Source of the DNA: Escherichia phage vB_EcoP_phi419
Direction: 5' to 3' (one strand)
Sequence record: PV189407.1
DNA: 60,662 bases
In this document: piece by piece, positions 45,001 through 51,000 of the stretch
How positions within the stretch are numbered: position 1 is the first letter of the stretch
Layout of the letters: every line of letters starts with the position of its first letter
Program-made: the position numbers

Positions 45001-48000
45001 AGTACGAAGCTATTCAGGCGATTTTCACGCAACTGACAGACCATGCAAAAACCGGATCGCGTCGCGGCCTTCGCTCATTTGGCGAGGTCATGGAAGACTG
45101 GGTTAGCGACCTTGAGAAGCGATTTGACCCATCAGGCGAACAACGGGGAATGAGCACAGGGATCCCATCGCTGGACAGGATGCTGTCACCGAAAGGTCTG
45201 GTGAAAGGCTCTCTGTTTGTCATTGGCGCTCGCCCTAAGATGGGGAAAACGACGCTATACAGCCAGATGGCAATCAATTGCGCAGTGCATGAGAAAAAGC
45301 CCGCTCTGATGTTCAGCCTTGAAATGCCAGGTGATCAGATACTGGAAAAACTGGTAGGGCAGAAGTCTGGTGTTAACCCGAATATTTTTTACCTTCCGGC
45401 GACAAATGACGCCGATGACGGCTATCAGGGTGATTACGATGGTGACTTCAACAGGGCGATCGAAACAGCCAATCGCTTGAGTGAAATCGACATGCTTTAC
45501 ATCGACGACACGCCGGGATTATCTCTGGCTCAAATCGTCAGCGAAAGCCGTCGAATCAAGCGAGAAAAAGGATGTGTTGGCATGATTCTGGTCGATTACC
45601 TGACACTAATGACCGCTGAGAAGGCCGATCGCAACGACCTTGCTTACGGCATGATCACCAAAGGACTGAAGAACCTTGCCAAAGAGCTTGATTGCGTTGT
45701 TGTGCTTCTGACGCAACTTAACCGCGCACTGGAAAGCCGAACCAATAAACGCCCATTACCAAGTGACTCACGAGATACAGGGCAGATTGAACAGGATTGC
45801 GATTATTGGGTGGGGATCCATCGTGAAGGTGCTTTTGATGACAGTGTTCCACCTGGTGAAACCGAACTAATCCTTCGTCTCAATCGTCATGGCAATACCG
45901 GCACGGTGTATTGCATTCAGGCAAATGGCGCTATTTATGACACAGACCAACAGTCTGCTGAAATGCGCCGACGTGAACGCGAGGAACCGCAGTCCAAGAA
46001 GAAAGGAGGATTCTGATGAATAAAAAACAATTAGCCATTCTCGAAAAGGCATGGGATGCGCAAATATCATACGCTTTGAAAGAACAGGCACTACCAATAA
46101 TCCAGACCAAATCGAAAATAGCCAGGCAGTTATGCGATGACGGATTCCTGAACGAAGTTGAGATTACGCACCAGATGGTAACGTTCAAAGGGTATGAGAT
46201 AAATCATCATGGTATAGCGGCGTATTGCTCCCATCTTCCTGATGACGTTGACATTGATGAAATGGAAAGGGAGATGAAGCAATGACCATCTACATCACTG
46301 AGCTAATAACAGGCCTGCTGGTAATCGCAGGCCTTTTTATTTGGGGGAGAGTAAATCGTGGCTGAGTTAATTTTCTCTGCATTGAGGATTCTCGGTGCTA
46401 TGTGGATGGTGGCGACATTCATTGTTGTTGTCAGCAGTTTTGTCCGGTTGGTAGGCGAAGGTAAAGACCTGGTGGGTGTGCTTTTCGGTAGCATTCTCCT
46501 GTGGGTGATTATCGGTGTTGCGCCTGTTGCTGTAGCAAAAATGGCGTGGCGTTTTGTTAGTTGAGGTGACGATGAAGCAAATATCACTTCAATAAATCGC
46601 TTTTAAGGCATCACAATCGCTCTGTGGTGAGGTAAGCACGTGCAAGGCATGTCGATAGGCAGCGAGAATGAAAAATGCGTCAGAATGCGTTTGAGGAGGT
46701 TTTAAGAAATGAGTACGATAGCTGAGCTTGTCAGGGCTAATTTTCGTGAAGAGTTGGTGCGTTGGTATCGGTATCGTTCATCGTCCAGTTTGCCGCTTGA
46801 TGAGTTGTATGAGCATTCACCTGCCGCACGATGCTATCCGCGTGACCGTGTTCTTCGACGGTTGTTCAAACTCAACAATGAGTTTCAGCGCAACAGAATT
46901 ATCCGGAGTCTGGATTTAAAGTGAAGGAGTGAGCATGAGCGAGCAAATATTCAGAGAGATTAAGCCACGGTTTTATCGCAAGGTAAGGGTGGTTTATCAG
47001 GACGAAAACAAGACATGTGCATACGCCATTCATAATGGTCGGTGGTCAGTGTTCGACACCAAAAACTTCGAGAAGAACTTCGAGAGGATTAAGGGTGATG
47101 AGGAAACTAACATTTGAACTAAGAAGCCCCATCCATCAGCAGAACGCCATTCAAGCTATCCAGCAAATTCTTCCAGACCCAACCAAACCAATCGTAGTAA
47201 CCATTCAGGAACGCAACCGCAGCATTCGGCAAAATGCACGCCTTCACGCGATGCTATCTGAAATAAGTAAGAAGGCTACATATCACGGAAAAGCAAGAAA
47301 TATTGAGTTTTGGAAGGGGTTATTCGTTTCTGGTTGGCAGATTGCAACCAACCAGCACCCTGAGATTATATCAGGGTTAGAAGGTGAGCTAATAAACATC
47401 AGAGAGAGTACGGCGACTCTATCTGTAAAAAAAATATCCGAAATAATGGACTACATAGAAGCATATTGTGCCATGAACTCAATTCATCTTAGCGAATGGA
47501 GGAATTATGATTGAGGTTTGGGTAGATATCGAAGGGATTCCATTTTATCAGGTTAGCAATAAAGGAAATTTCAGGTCTATTACGAGGGAAGTTACAGTAA
47601 CATCAACCAGACAGAGGCCATATAAGAAAATAATTAATGGCACTAGTGTAAAACCATTCAAGTGCAAGTCGACAGGATATCTTCAAATAAAGGTATACGG
47701 TAAGAAATACAGCGCCCACAGGATAGTTGCGAAAGCATTCTGTACAGGGTTCTGTGATGGCTTGGTAGTTAATCACAAAAATGGGCGAAGAGATGACAAT
47801 AGGGCTGATAACCTTGAATGGGTATCACATTCTGAAAACTCAAAACACGGATATAAACAAAATGGAAGAATACCTATATCGCTAGGTAAATTTAGTGGTG
47901 ACCATCCTGCCAGTAAAGCTGTTATTTCTACTGACATGAAAACTGGGGAGGAGGTTTATTATGAAGCAGCTATGGATGCTGTCAGAGAAGGATTTGATAG

Positions 48001-51000
48001 TTCGTCAATTAGTCGTTGCTGTAATGGCGAAAGCTCATATCACAAAGGAAGATTCTGGCGATTTGCAAATGAAAAAATGAAAGCGCGATGGGGAGATCGG
48101 GCTGCATGACTATCAAATCAAATACGCCAGCACACGACAAGGACTGCTGGCAAACGCCGCTTTGGCTTTTTGATGCACTGGATATTGAGTTTGGATTCTG
48201 GCTGGATTCGGCAGCGAGCGACAAAAATGCTCTGTGTGCTCACTGGCTAACTGAGGCCGACGACGCGCTCAATTCTGAGTGGGTAAGCCACGGTGCAATC
48301 TGGAATAACCCACCGTACAGCAATATCAGGCCGTGGGTGGAAAAAGCCGCTGAGCAGTGCATACAACAGCGACAGACGGTAGTTATGCTTGTGCCAGAGG
48401 ATATGTCAGTCGGATGGTTCAGCAAGGCTCTGGAGAGTGTTGACGAAGTTCGCATTATCACTGATGGACGGATTAATTTTATCGAACCATCGACGGGGCT
48501 GGAGAAGAAGGGAAACAGTAAAGGCTCCATGCTGCTGATTTGGCGACCGTTCATCAGTCCTCGACGGATGTTTACTACCGTATCCAAAGCGGCATTGATG
48601 GCGATCGGGCAGGGCGTCAGGAGGGCGGCATGAGGCGACAGCGACGAAGTATCACCGACATCATCTGCGAAAACTGCAAATACCTTCCAACGAAACGCTC
48701 CAGAAATAAACGCAAGCCAATCCCAAAAGAATCTGACGTAAAAACCTTCAATTACACGGCTCACCTGTGGGATATCCGGTGGCTAAGACATCGTGCGAGG
48801 AATACAAGGGGATTGACGCGATGATTTATCCGGGGCTATATTCCTCACACGCCAGCAAAATCTGGCGTCGGGATTGGCGTCCCGGATGAAAAAGGCGACA
48901 ACAGACGCGCCAGCGTCTTTTTTATTGTCGTTTGCACAGTCACATCTCAATGGTGGGCTGTGTGGGGGCGGAGCAATCCGCGCCGGTTCCTTTTTCCCGG
49001 TTACGCCAACCCTGCACAGTTCACCACCAAGCGATTGGCGTCGCAGGTGGTGATGATTCACAAAGAAAAAGGATCATCTTATGGCCACCAAAATCGCAGT
49101 TGAAACTCTTTCCCCGATTACCCACAACCAGATCCCTGTCATAACCACCGAGCTATTGGCGCATCTTTATGGAACGGATGTTGCCAACATAAAAATGAAT
49201 CATTCACGTAATCAAACTCGTTTTCTGGAAGGGAAGCATTATTTCAAAATCGTTGGCGATGATCTGAAAAATTTGCGAGTAACTTTTAGTTACCTGCAAA
49301 TTTCCCCCAAAACCCGCTCCCTCATCCTCTGGACTGAACGCGGCGCTGCCCGTCACGCCAAAATGCTCGAAACCGATCAGGCGTGGGAAGTGTTCGAAAA
49401 ACTGGAAGACTGCTATTTCAGCCAGTGCAAGAAAAATACTGGCAAACAAGAGAAGAAGCCCAACGGGCTTTCCGCAAAAGAAACAGACAGCCTTGTTTGG
49501 CTGTGGGATTATGCCAACCGCTCACAGGCATTGTTCCGTGAGTTGTATCCCGCATTAAAACTGATTCAGTCTGGCTATTCCGGCATATGCCACGACTACG
49601 GCTATGAGTTCTCGTATATCATCGGGAGGGCGAGGGGCGTTTTAATTAATCACACGCGGGATATAGATATTTATGAGCCTGACGGGCCGACGAACCTTCT
49701 GGCATGGGAAAGGCTTAAGAACAAAGAGTTGCCGCCTTCACTGCATCGCTACTGACAATTGACAACTTAACAAACCCAGCTTCGGCTGGGTTTTTTATTG
49801 CTGAATTTTCAATGTGAGAGGACATGACAATGAATGAGCTGATAAATAGCAATGCCATCAAAATGACAAGCATTGAAATCGCTGAGTTGGTGGGAAGCCA
49901 ACACGGTAATGTCAGAATATCAATAGAACGTCTGGCAAAGCGTGGGGTGATTCAACTTCCTTCAATGCAAAAAGTTGAAAATAAACAAACAATTAGCCCT
50001 AACAAATTCACAAGCGTGTATATATTCGAAGGCGAACAAGGTAAGCGAGACAGCATTATTGTCGTCGCTCAGTTGTCGCCGGAATTCACCGCTCGCCTTG
50101 TTGACCGCTGGCGAGAACTCGAAGGGGCAACCGCGAAAATACCACAAACCTTTTCTGAGGCATTGCGCCTTGCGGCCGACCTTGAAGACCAGAAGGCTGA
50201 ACTGGAGAAACAGCTTGCTCTCGCAGCACCTAAAGTTGAGTTTGCCGATCGAGTTGGCGAGGCCAGCGGAATTTTGATTGGAAACTTTGCAAAGGTTGTT
50301 GGTATTGGTCCAAACAAACTGTTTGCGTGGATGCGCGATCACAAAATCCTTATTGCTTCAGGTGCCCGGCGCAATGTGCCAATGCAGGAATATATGGATC
50401 GCGGCTATTTCACAGTGAAAGAAACAGCGGTCAATACAAATCACGGAATACAGATATCGTTCACCACAAAAATCACCGGGCGTGGTCAACAGTGGCTGAC
50501 AAGAAAGCTGCTAGATAACGGAATGCTTAAAGTAACAGGGGAGGCTGCTTAATGGCTAAACCAGCGCGAAGGAAATGCAAAATCTGTAAGGAATGGTTTC
50601 ACCCGGCATTCTCAAATCAGTGGTGGTGCAGCCCGGAACACGGAACTAAATTAGCACTCGAACGACGAAATAAAGAACGCGAAAAGGCGGAAAAAACAGC
50701 AGAGAAGAAACGACGACGAGAGGAGCAGAAACAGAAAGATAAAATTAAGATTCGAAAACTCGCCTTAAAGCCCCGCAGTTACTGGATTAAACAAGCCCAA
50801 CAAGCCGTAAACGCCTTCATCAGAGAAAGAGACCGCGACTTACCATGTATCTCGTGCGGAACGCTCACGTCTGCTCAGTGGGATGCCGGACATTACCGGA
50901 CAACTGCTGCGGCACCTCAACTCCGATTTGATGAACGCAATATTCACAAGCAATGCGTGGTGTGCAACCAGCACAAAAGCGGAAATCTCGTTCCGTATCG

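Follow-up and report, generated by a model that had tools for sequence, protein, structure and literature searches.

How did a gene for an HNH endonuclease come to lie between ninB and the dam methyltransferase gene of Escherichia phage vB_EcoP_phi419, and could it promote its own inheritance? The sequence analysed here is a stretch of 60,662 nucleotides (nt) from this phage (record PV189407.1), referred to below as the window. Between ninB and dam it contains an open reading frame (ORF) of 200 amino acids (aa) with an ATG start, at 47507..48109 on the plus strand, whose translation runs MIEVW...VNHKNGRRDDNRADNLEWVSHSEN...KARWGDRAA. GenBank and RefSeq already annotate the gene as 'HNH endonuclease' or 'NUMOD4 domain-containing protein'. 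A preliminary description of the locus regarded it as a free-standing homing endonuclease gene simply inserted between its neighbours. The comparison presented here gives another picture of the event: measured against an empty site of the HK97 type, about 855 nt (47224-48078) now stand in place of about 283 nt of ninB (codons 43-136) and hold a divergent body of ninB together with the HNH gene. The explanation that we consider best, with little better than even confidence, is intronless homing of the MobE kind, i.e., localised marker exclusion, in which the divergent ninB would be an allele immune to cleavage.

The preliminary description spoke of related phages that lack the insert, and comparison of the ninB-dam junctions showed such phages. 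The junction was matched by 337 phage records. The whole stretch is held by 61 of them (61-62 sites counted as occupied), and about 275 others match ninB and/or dam. Occupied records include Stx2 phage 86, P27, phi345, Lahn2, TL-2011a, F723 and about 50 Stx2a phages, with an HNH gene 100% identical to that of the window. In HK97, HK140, SfI, Sf101, 434, VT2-Sakai, 933W-type phages and many more, ninB is followed directly by dam. Presence and absence are thus clear among Stx and other lambdoid phages, and empty sites such as those of HK97, VT2-Sakai and 434 are abundant. Among 5426 complete Escherichia coli genomes the HNH gene was carried by 77 (1.4%), and 1864 match the flanks.

Four empty sites, those of HK97, VT2-Sakai, lambda and P22, were aligned with the window. 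The window ninB matches ninB of lambda, HK97 and P22 over codons 1-42 only, and the shared stretch ends in a block of 30 nt that is identical in all; with 47150-47506 as a query, identity to lambda, HK97, P22 and HK022 was about 93-95% over query positions 1-74. From codon 43 (47224) onwards the gene is a divergent allele, designated alt-ninB. The whole protein is about 47% identical to lambda Orf, most of the divergence falling after codon 42, and alt-ninB nevertheless remains a full-length NinB domain, with a Pfam match of 4.4e-40 over profile positions 2-129 of 131. Compared with HK97 the net gain is 571 nt, which agrees with the size difference between occupied and empty phage records. At the other end of the block, the 31 nt of 48079-48109 match the ninB 3' end of HK97, HK140, SfI, 434 and others at 100%; they stand in the same frame and just ahead of dam. 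The KARWGDRAA* tail that they give to the HNH protein is a scar of the displaced lambda-type ninB, because Salmonella phage SEN22, an Enterobacter phage and all 41 of the 41 other aligned family members lack the seven extra codons and end in ...WRFAxExxAA. Within these 31 nt lies the linker GCTGCATGA, which couples to the next gene. The mobile block spans about 47224-48109 and consists of the alt-ninB body, the HNH gene and the 31-nt ninB relic.

Alt-ninB and the HNH gene always kept each other's company. The 854 nt specific to the block were matched whole in all 77 of the 77 E. coli genomes, where alt-ninB never occurs without the HNH gene. In the phage records alt-ninB was present 64 times, with the HNH gene intact in 62 and split in one. 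A precise empty site for the HNH gene alone, i.e., alt-ninB without it, was found neither in the 5426 complete E. coli genomes nor in the phage collection. The nearest HNH-less relative of the window NinB that was found has 57% NinB identity, and alt-ninB relatives at 61-89% identity likewise have an HNH gene next. A separate observation concerns a run of eight A in alt-ninB (window 47421-47428), where an indel of 1 nt in loci L021 and L026 shifts the frame, so that tblastn reports alt-ninB of these loci in two pieces, residues 1-112 and 110-138; the cause may be an error in sequencing or a slippage-prone inactivation.

The contexts of the cassette were taken from 32 IMG/VR loci and several GenBank records. 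It is 97-100% identical across contexts, and the next gene is dam in most loci. In APC_JM3.2 and L026 it is followed by ninC, in L025 by ninD, and in VL40, L028-31, L034 and L039 by ninE; in L035 another HNH gene comes in between, and then dam. Because the same cassette precedes ninC, ninD or ninE elsewhere, the HNH gene is tied to ninB and not to dam, which is a neighbour by context only and lies outside the mobile block. Upstream, the cassette is preceded by at least three variants of the ninB 5' part, and the host phages have unrelated replication modules. Breakpoints were defined as the limits of near-identity to the window by ungapped extension from the HNH start. On the left they fall at 47212, 47161-47170, 47113, 46918 or further upstream, and on the right at 48074-48096 (within the 31-nt tail or at its edge), 48131, about 48790, 48875, 49142 and 49832, with 47212-48074 as the core common to all cassettes. 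Tracts of variable length around an element fit co-conversion, and ordinary mosaic recombination gives the same pattern. The boundaries of nin genes share a GCNGCATGA linker (…AA* overlapping the next ATG), seen in the window at, e.g., 48100-48109 and 48624-48633. The generic boundary linker GGCAGCATGA was present in the flanks of 7 of 15 divergent loci, against a maximum of 4 in shuffles, and was the sole motif above the control; it may serve as micro-homology for exchange of modules.

The start and stop of the HNH gene overlap both neighbours, as the preliminary description had read. The TGA stop of ninB (47512-47514) lies beyond the HNH ATG, an overlap of 8 nt, and the HNH stop TGA at 48107-48109 forms an ATGA overlap of 4 nt with the dam ATG at 48106. 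The ninB/HNH junction gaatGGAGGaattATGa is kept in SEN22. Consensus scans for promoters and terminators in the ninB-dam interval gave nothing better than shuffles, neither a promoter nor a terminator of the HNH gene's own. The three genes ninB, HNH and dam are a single transcription unit, because no promoter- or terminator-like site beyond chance separates them. As for the low content of guanine and cytosine (GC) noted in the preliminary description, the difference itself stands: 39.8% in the HNH ORF against 49.3% in the window and 51.9% in dam, placing the ORF at the 5.5th percentile among 600-nt segments. The low-GC tract does not, however, start with the HNH gene but within ninB at about 47224, and 47224-47506 has 39.9% GC.

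The predicted protein has the architecture of I-HmuI-like homing endonucleases: an N-terminal NUMOD4 region, an HNH core of the beta-beta-alpha-metal type and a C-terminal helix-turn-helix. In Pfam, NUMOD4 was matched by aa 3-63 (E=1.4e-13, 51 bits against a cut-off of 23.4) and HNH_3 (PF13392) by aa 69-112 (E=2.4e-11, 43.5 bits against 24.8), and aa 145-181 gave a weak, sub-threshold match to I-HmuI_NUMOD-like. Further matches were PHROG 59 'HNH endonuclease' (1e-39) and the generic 'homing endonuclease' model of PADLOC (1.1e-26, full-length). These results agree with the preliminary description as to an HNH protein of 200 aa between ninB and a Dam-type methyltransferase with an NPPY motif. 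The sole match by sequence in PDB was I-HmuI (1U3E, E=3.7e-14), residues 55-186 being aligned with 36-170 of its 174. A model made with AlphaFold2 from 42 homologues had a mean predicted local distance difference test (pLDDT) score of 90.1 and was weak only in the last 10 residues (58), where the ninB-derived tail lies; Foldseek again returned 1u3e as the sole significant match in PDB (E=7.8e-13, 190 aligned columns). In the PDB alignment H90 stands opposite H75 of I-HmuI, the general base, and N111 opposite N96, a metal ligand, the second such ligand being D74. In the alignment of 42 homologues, H90, N98, N102 and N111 show no variation or are at least 90% conserved, and conservation is very high in the C-terminal domain of the clade as well. 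The gene is under purifying selection: the ratio of non-synonymous to synonymous substitution rates (dN/dS) is about 0.15 for close pairs, and in distant pairs (Salmonella and Enterobacter homologues) dS is saturated and dN amounts to 0.15-0.25. By tblastn the protein is about 30% identical to a large I-HmuI/I-BasI-like HNH family of Gram-positive phages, including the SPO1 polymerase-intron ORF, I-BasI and the polA intron ORF of phage K. Judged from its sequence, we regard the ORF as a real and intact gene for an I-HmuI-type HNH endonuclease with its catalytic residues present.

Several other assignments for the gene were tried and rejected. An intron-encoded endonuclease is ruled out by the lack of any Rfam intron family at the locus in a scan of the window, together with the overlaps with ninB (8 nt) and dam (4 nt). 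A packaging HNH of the HK97 gp74 type is ruled out as well, since the gene lies beside ninB and dam in the nin region (early right), not beside terminase genes, and the protein has 200 aa with extra DNA-binding domains. Nor does it form a restriction-modification pair with Dam, since the cassette precedes ninC, ninD or ninE without dam, and dam occurs without the HNH gene in most phages. As to a component of a defence system, PADLOC gives its generic homing-endonuclease model alone. The class of NinB/zinc-finger-HNH fusion nucleases was not recovered either: no Pfam match to DUF968 or RecA_dep_nuc was obtained at E<=0.01, and NinB and HNH are two ORFs in different frames.

Beyond the lambdoid phages of E. 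coli, an Orf-family gene immediately precedes HNH homologues 51-79% identical to that of the window, usually overlapping them by 8 nt as well, in Salmonella phage SEN22, two species of Yersinia, Serratia, Trabulsiella, Mixta, Camelimonas, Aeromonas and a metagenome-assembled genome labelled Acinetobacter. In Klebsiella and Salmonella the gene upstream is a NinB of 143 aa (phrog_72, 1e-36), and in Enterobacter-type phages it belongs to DUF1367/phrog_319, which is annotated NinB/Orf as well. The exception is Pseudomonas, where an ORF of 112 aa with no similarity to NinB/Orf in Pfam or PHROGs precedes the HNH gene. The divergences of NinB and HNH are roughly correlated (Spearman 0.65). A scan of species-representative genomes with the single protein returned nothing, and with the alignment it returned 4 close and 76 distant relatives. 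Upstream of these 76 more distant I-HmuI-like genes (28-53% identity in the best matched segment) there is in no case a NinB-like gene, and in one case a DUF1367-like gene. In Parabacteroides sp. (L072:1565-2573) a DUF1367-like ORF (E=8.7e-15 to the Enterobacter-phage type) lies directly upstream of an I-HmuI-like HNH at 33%, an echo of the Orf-HNH arrangement outside Proteobacteria. In Aeromonas-type prophages (L046-L048:3554-3865) a RecA_dep_nuc/DUF968-like protein of 103 aa was observed right after the NinB-HNH pair, so that three recombination or nuclease genes are clustered. The association of HNH and ninB is old, and not a recent invasion of this operon, because the homologues at 51-79% follow Orf/NinB-family genes in Salmonella, Yersinia, Klebsiella, Serratia, Aeromonas and others. 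The idea of a homing endonuclease that invaded the nin operon is kept in part: a free-standing gene of I-HmuI type, with intact residues and spread at 97-100% identity, is what the locus holds, but a simple insertion between ninB and dam is not upheld.

Within the lineage of the 143-aa NinB, ninB genes share 75-97% of their nucleotides, and precisely where the HNH gene starts this value drops to 42-67%. HNH alleles have therefore turned over at this site, beside a near-identical ninB. Non-orthologous endonuclease genes were found at the site and nearby too. An alt-type NinB in L059:2410-2958 has a member of another HNH family (HNH_3+AP2) behind it, and the two overlap by the same 8 nt. In L034:1934-3603 (IMG/VR UViG_2751185961_000005) the first 32 ninB codons are fused in frame to an HNH_3+AP2 ORF; next come a ninB whose N-terminus is re-coded and the NUMOD4-HNH, so that one ninB has an endonuclease gene on either side. 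In L035:3582-4654 (IMG/VR UViG_2703719355_000002) an HNH_3 ORF between NUMOD4-HNH and dam starts in frame with the first 9 codons of dam (MTIKSNTPA), and the dam that follows has a re-coded N-terminus (MIKHKSETPKEVRDCWQTP...). Both loci mirror the window in combining an endonuclease gene, a re-coded copy of the neighbour and an in-frame relic of the displaced copy. The ninB junction behaves as a docking site for endonuclease genes. Beside these, an ORF of 175 aa right after a NinB relative (L061:2380-2907) gave no Pfam match and contains an HNH-like stretch, LDRIDPNGNYEPANCRW.

Some copies are broken. In L036:1800-3001 the HNH gene is cut after codon 46 by an IS5-like insertion sequence (IS) of about 1.2 kb with a transposase of 326 aa (DDE_Tnp_1/DUF772), and GenBank LC616041 has the same split. 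The record LC616042 has about 1.27 kb extra somewhere in ninB-HNH-dam. What looks like a decaying copy occurs in Mixta sp. (L066:2001-2372): NinB is intact there (E=2.4e-64 against the NinB profile), and of the HNH homologue right behind it only about 121 aa remain. Disruption and truncation of this sort correspond to decay as in the life cycle of homing endonucleases.

In the mechanism that we favour, the HNH gene would be expressed from the early-right (nin) transcript and translated from the GGAGG inside the end of ninB. When a phage carrying it and an HNH-less lambdoid phage or prophage replicate in one cell, the enzyme would nick or cut the HNH-less DNA at or near the lambda-type ninB, and the break would be repaired by recombination with the HNH-carrying genome as a template. 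Repair would copy the HNH gene and the adjoining divergent ninB body, the latter being the donor's cleavage-resistant allele, which would preserve the function of a recombination mediator. The conserved first 42 codons of ninB may act as the left homology arm and receive the crossovers on that side; those on the right may fall in the retained 31-nt tail of the lambda-type ninB or further into dam. A number of results argue for such homing. The only solved relative, by sequence as well as by fold, is I-HmuI, and the PADLOC match is to a homing-endonuclease model. Conserved H90, N98, N102 and N111 and a dN/dS far below 1 point to an active-looking, selected gene. Presence and absence are polymorphic both in phage records and in E. 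coli genomes, and a divergent allele of the presumed target gene is linked, as in MobE/nrdB. The same cassette sits in varied contexts with heterogeneous breakpoints on both sides, and its HNH 3' end bears an in-frame scar of the displaced ninB. The docking behaviour of the site (allele turnover, L059, L034, L035) and the decayed copies (L036, LC616041, Mixta) are in line with it, and there are published precedents in MobE (PMC2790892), the HNHs of Skunavirus (PMC12724721) and the epsilon34 fusion (PMC2629481).

Other results weigh against homing and bring its rivals into play. The element is rare in E. coli though potential recipients are common, and the position of D74 of I-HmuI is N89 in the window protein; most clade members have Asn there and a few have D, and Asn could also ligate metal. 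When the flanks of the 15 divergent loci were screened for shared k-mers, no DNA target common to them emerged that could be proposed. A shared cassette with heterogeneous breakpoints would equally result from ordinary lambdoid mosaic recombination at conserved boundaries. In addition, the strict position after three very different Orf subtypes (alt-NinB, 143-aa NinB and DUF1367/phrog_319) is not obviously expected of a sequence-specific selfish element and could reflect functional coupling instead. One rival builds on this last point: the HNH protein would be a nickase that works with the adjacent Orf/NinB mediator, the two genes forming a module in which linkage is selected for function and not for selfish spread. 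For example, it might nick phage or host DNA and so provide single-stranded DNA or D-loop substrates where NinB loads RecA or Red-beta; the pair would then be the split counterpart of nucleases that fuse a NinB domain and HNH (DUF968 proteins; PhiNM1 Gp16). Overlapping, translationally coupled ORFs, the place of the clade directly after an Orf-family gene in nearly all sampled Enterobacterales and Aeromonas loci, the constant company of alt-ninB and HNH in E. coli, the correlated divergence, the well conserved C-terminal domain and the publication of NinB-HNH fusions as functional nucleases (PMC4118853; PMC12817073) all fit such a partnership. We nonetheless find it unlikely. The fusions use a different, zinc-finger HNH, and the window protein, which has no DUF968 or RecA_dep_nuc match, is built like the site-specific homing enzymes. 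HNH alleles are swapped beside near-identical ninB, a non-orthologous HNH_3+AP2 gene can fill the same position, and IS-disrupted and truncated copies persist beside intact ninB. Moreover, the lambda-type Orf functions without any HNH, the NinB relative at 57% identity has none, and the Pseudomonas upstream gene has no detectable similarity to NinB/Orf. A more speculative form, in which the two genes are a conserved and co-inherited 'cut-and-load' pair, the HNH enzyme nicking the DNA of lambdoid rivals or some specific structure and the NinB allele that belongs to it loading recombinase at the lesion, seems to us less likely still. If true, the element would bring its own repair mediator, and homing and the formation of nin-region mosaics would be independent of host RecFOR; it would also explain the position of the clade after three Orf subtypes and the absence of alt-ninB without HNH in E. 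coli.

The block may also be a passive passenger in the lambdoid mosaic, i.e., an accessory nuclease, directed for example against competing phages or host DNA, that rides with one ninB allele and has no self-promoted inheritance. Ordinary homologous recombination of the Red/Rad52 type at short conserved boundaries of nin genes would then shuffle it. The GCNGCATGA linker is common to all nin boundaries here, breakpoints lie where the sequence is conserved (the ninB 5' block, the tail and dam), and the element is infrequent despite abundant empty sites. Several occupied E. coli chromosomes hold further flank-matching places, which means that sites in the same cell were left unconverted. Relaxed recombination among lambdoid phages is also a well-documented process (PMC2327257, PMC3945230). 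Such shuffling, however, leaves unexplained why several unrelated HNH genes with in-frame relics occur at and near the site, and why crossovers fall inside the 31-nt tail, which is easier to rationalise if they are stimulated by breaks. The characterised members of the family are, besides, homing or marker-exclusion enzymes (PMC12724721), and we are inclined to doubt the passenger reading. That the gene is an inactive relic of a former homing endonuclease, kept merely because its overlaps couple translation of ninB and dam, we consider highly improbable. The Asn at the D74-equivalent position, the foreign tail fused to the C-terminus and the disruption of some copies could be taken as signs of it. 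Yet purifying selection is strong at the dN/dS values given above, conservation of the catalytic His and Asn extends over the 42 homologues, the predicted structure is fully folded with high confidence, and the Asn is the norm of the clade and not a lesion. Homing with a linked, presumably immune ninB allele is the reading we retain.

If homing is true, the locus lends itself to the study of a homing endonuclease at work in temperate lambdoid phages, among them the clinically important Stx2a phages of O157:H7, O121, O111 and O103. The inheritance of a recombination gene and of nearby nin-region DNA would be biased when prophages and infecting phages meet, and a testable mechanism would be available for some of the sharp mosaic joints of the nin region, where three different HNH genes carry in-frame relics. 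If it is wrong, the strict synteny of NinB and HNH would suggest that Orf-family mediators have a nuclease partner not recognised so far. In practical terms the cassette is a clean presence/absence marker for subtyping of Stx phages. The enzyme family is well known, and as a member of it the gene is a tidy example that will not surprise a specialist. The literature search found no paper on this specific gene within the library searched, and what is apparently undescribed so far is the obligatory linkage of the HNH gene to a divergent ninB, the in-frame scar of the ninB tail and the clade-wide position behind Orf-family genes.

The features of the locus are collected in Table 1. The upstream neighbour belongs to NinB/Orf (PF05772, 4.4e-40) and ends at 47514; its true start is probably the ATG at 47098, giving a product of 138 aa. 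In a mechanical list of ORFs dam begins within the HNH gene, at the in-frame ATG 48088. A start at 48106 appears likelier, because dam of HK97 and VT2-Sakai is annotated from the ATG of the ATGA overlap. The window dam is 97-99% identical to that of the HNH-less HK97, VT2-Sakai and 933W-type phages.

Table 1. Features of the ninB-HNH-dam region, in window coordinates.
Feature	Position	Strand	Remarks
ninB, conserved 5' part	47098..47223	+	codons 1-42, to ...QERNRS; alignment with HK97, APC_JM3.2 and SEN22
alt-ninB body	47224..47514	+	codons 43-138 and stop; Pfam NinB, GC 39.9%, linkage to HNH
Shine-Dalgarno GGAGG for HNH gene	47498-47502	+	within the final ninB codons, 4 nt ahead of ATG 47507; from sequence
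HNH endonuclease gene	47507..48109	+	200 aa, free-standing, I-HmuI-like; Pfam, PHROG, PADLOC and PDB matches
NUMOD4 domain	47513-47695	+	part of HNH gene
HNH_3 catalytic core	47711-47842	+	N89, H90, N98, N102, N111
C-terminal NUMOD-like helix-turn-helix	about 47939-48049	+	part of HNH gene
Relic of displaced ninB 3' end	48079..48109	+	KARWGDRAA*, in frame; 31 nt 100% identical to HK97-type ninB
dam, phage N6-adenine methyltransferase	48106..48633	+	PF05869 7e-65, TIGR01712 1e-79; motif IWNNPPYS

Downstream of this region, Rfam matches to c4-a1b1, isrK and C4 antisense RNA lie at 48836-49031 on the plus strand and fill the stretch without ORFs that separates ninE from the antirepressor gene ant (49081-49755); these RNAs are a P1/P7-type antisense control module for ant. 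Three transfer RNAs, STnc100 and the anti-stx2 small RNA AsxR mark the window as a Stx2-type lambdoid phage, and the lambda cIII thermoregulator element and a minus-strand match to sRNA-Xcc1 are present as well. The coordinates for these RNA features, collectively, are 52217-52463, 53872-54131, 38305-38363 and 32532-32621.

Among known systems, I-HmuI of the DNA-polymerase intron of Bacillus phage SPO1 (1U3E), with its relatives I-HmuII, I-BasI and I-TwoI, comes closest as a protein. The likeness extends over residues 55-186, the fold and the three-part architecture of an N-terminal beta DNA-binding region, an HNH core and a C-terminal helix-turn-helix, with catalytic H90 corresponding to H75 and N111 to N96. 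The window protein is about 29% identical to it, has Asn in place of D74 and carries a 9-residue NinB relic on its C-terminus; its gene is free-standing and overlaps its neighbours, whereas I-HmuI resides in a group I intron. I-HmuI is a nicking enzyme, as the window protein may be. The I-HmuI-like HNHs of Skunavirus cluster by insertion location, truncated remnants of them are common and marker exclusion has been shown experimentally (PMC12724721). They belong to the same structural family, are free-standing and variably present, and tblastn gave about 31-35% identity to phages of the 936 group; unlike the window gene, they come from Gram-positive virulent phages, occupy other insertion sites and have no linkage to ninB.

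Fusions of a NinB domain and HNH (the DUF968 Orf-like proteins, PMC4118853, and the RecA-dependent nuclease PhiNM1 Gp16, PMC12817073) resemble the window in pairing an Orf/NinB module with HNH in early regions of phages. They are single polypeptides with a zinc-finger (CXXC/CXXH) HNH, in contrast to two overlapping ORFs and an I-HmuI-type HNH with sequence-specific DNA-binding modules. In phage epsilon34, the N-terminus of eaE is fused in frame to an HNH homing endonuclease in gene 31 (PMC2629481). This is likewise an HNH ORF of a lambdoid/P22-like phage that carries an in-frame fragment of a displaced host gene, but the fusion is N-terminal, the operon is the early-left one and the HNH gene is a different one. 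A parallel in arrangement is offered by MobE, SegF and SegG of T4. MobE is a free-standing HNH between nrdA and nrdB and a model of intronless homing with a linked polymorphic allele (PMC2790892). All three share with the window gene a promoterless endonuclease gene wedged between conserved genes, empty sites in relatives and flanking tracts of variable length, and MobE shares with it the linkage to a polymorphic allele of a neighbour gene. The likeness lies in arrangement, and the host here is a temperate lambdoid phage instead of a T-even phage. Whereas the linked allele of MobE differs by a few polymorphisms, the putative 'immune' allele of the window is a wholesale divergent gene body, at about 47% protein identity.

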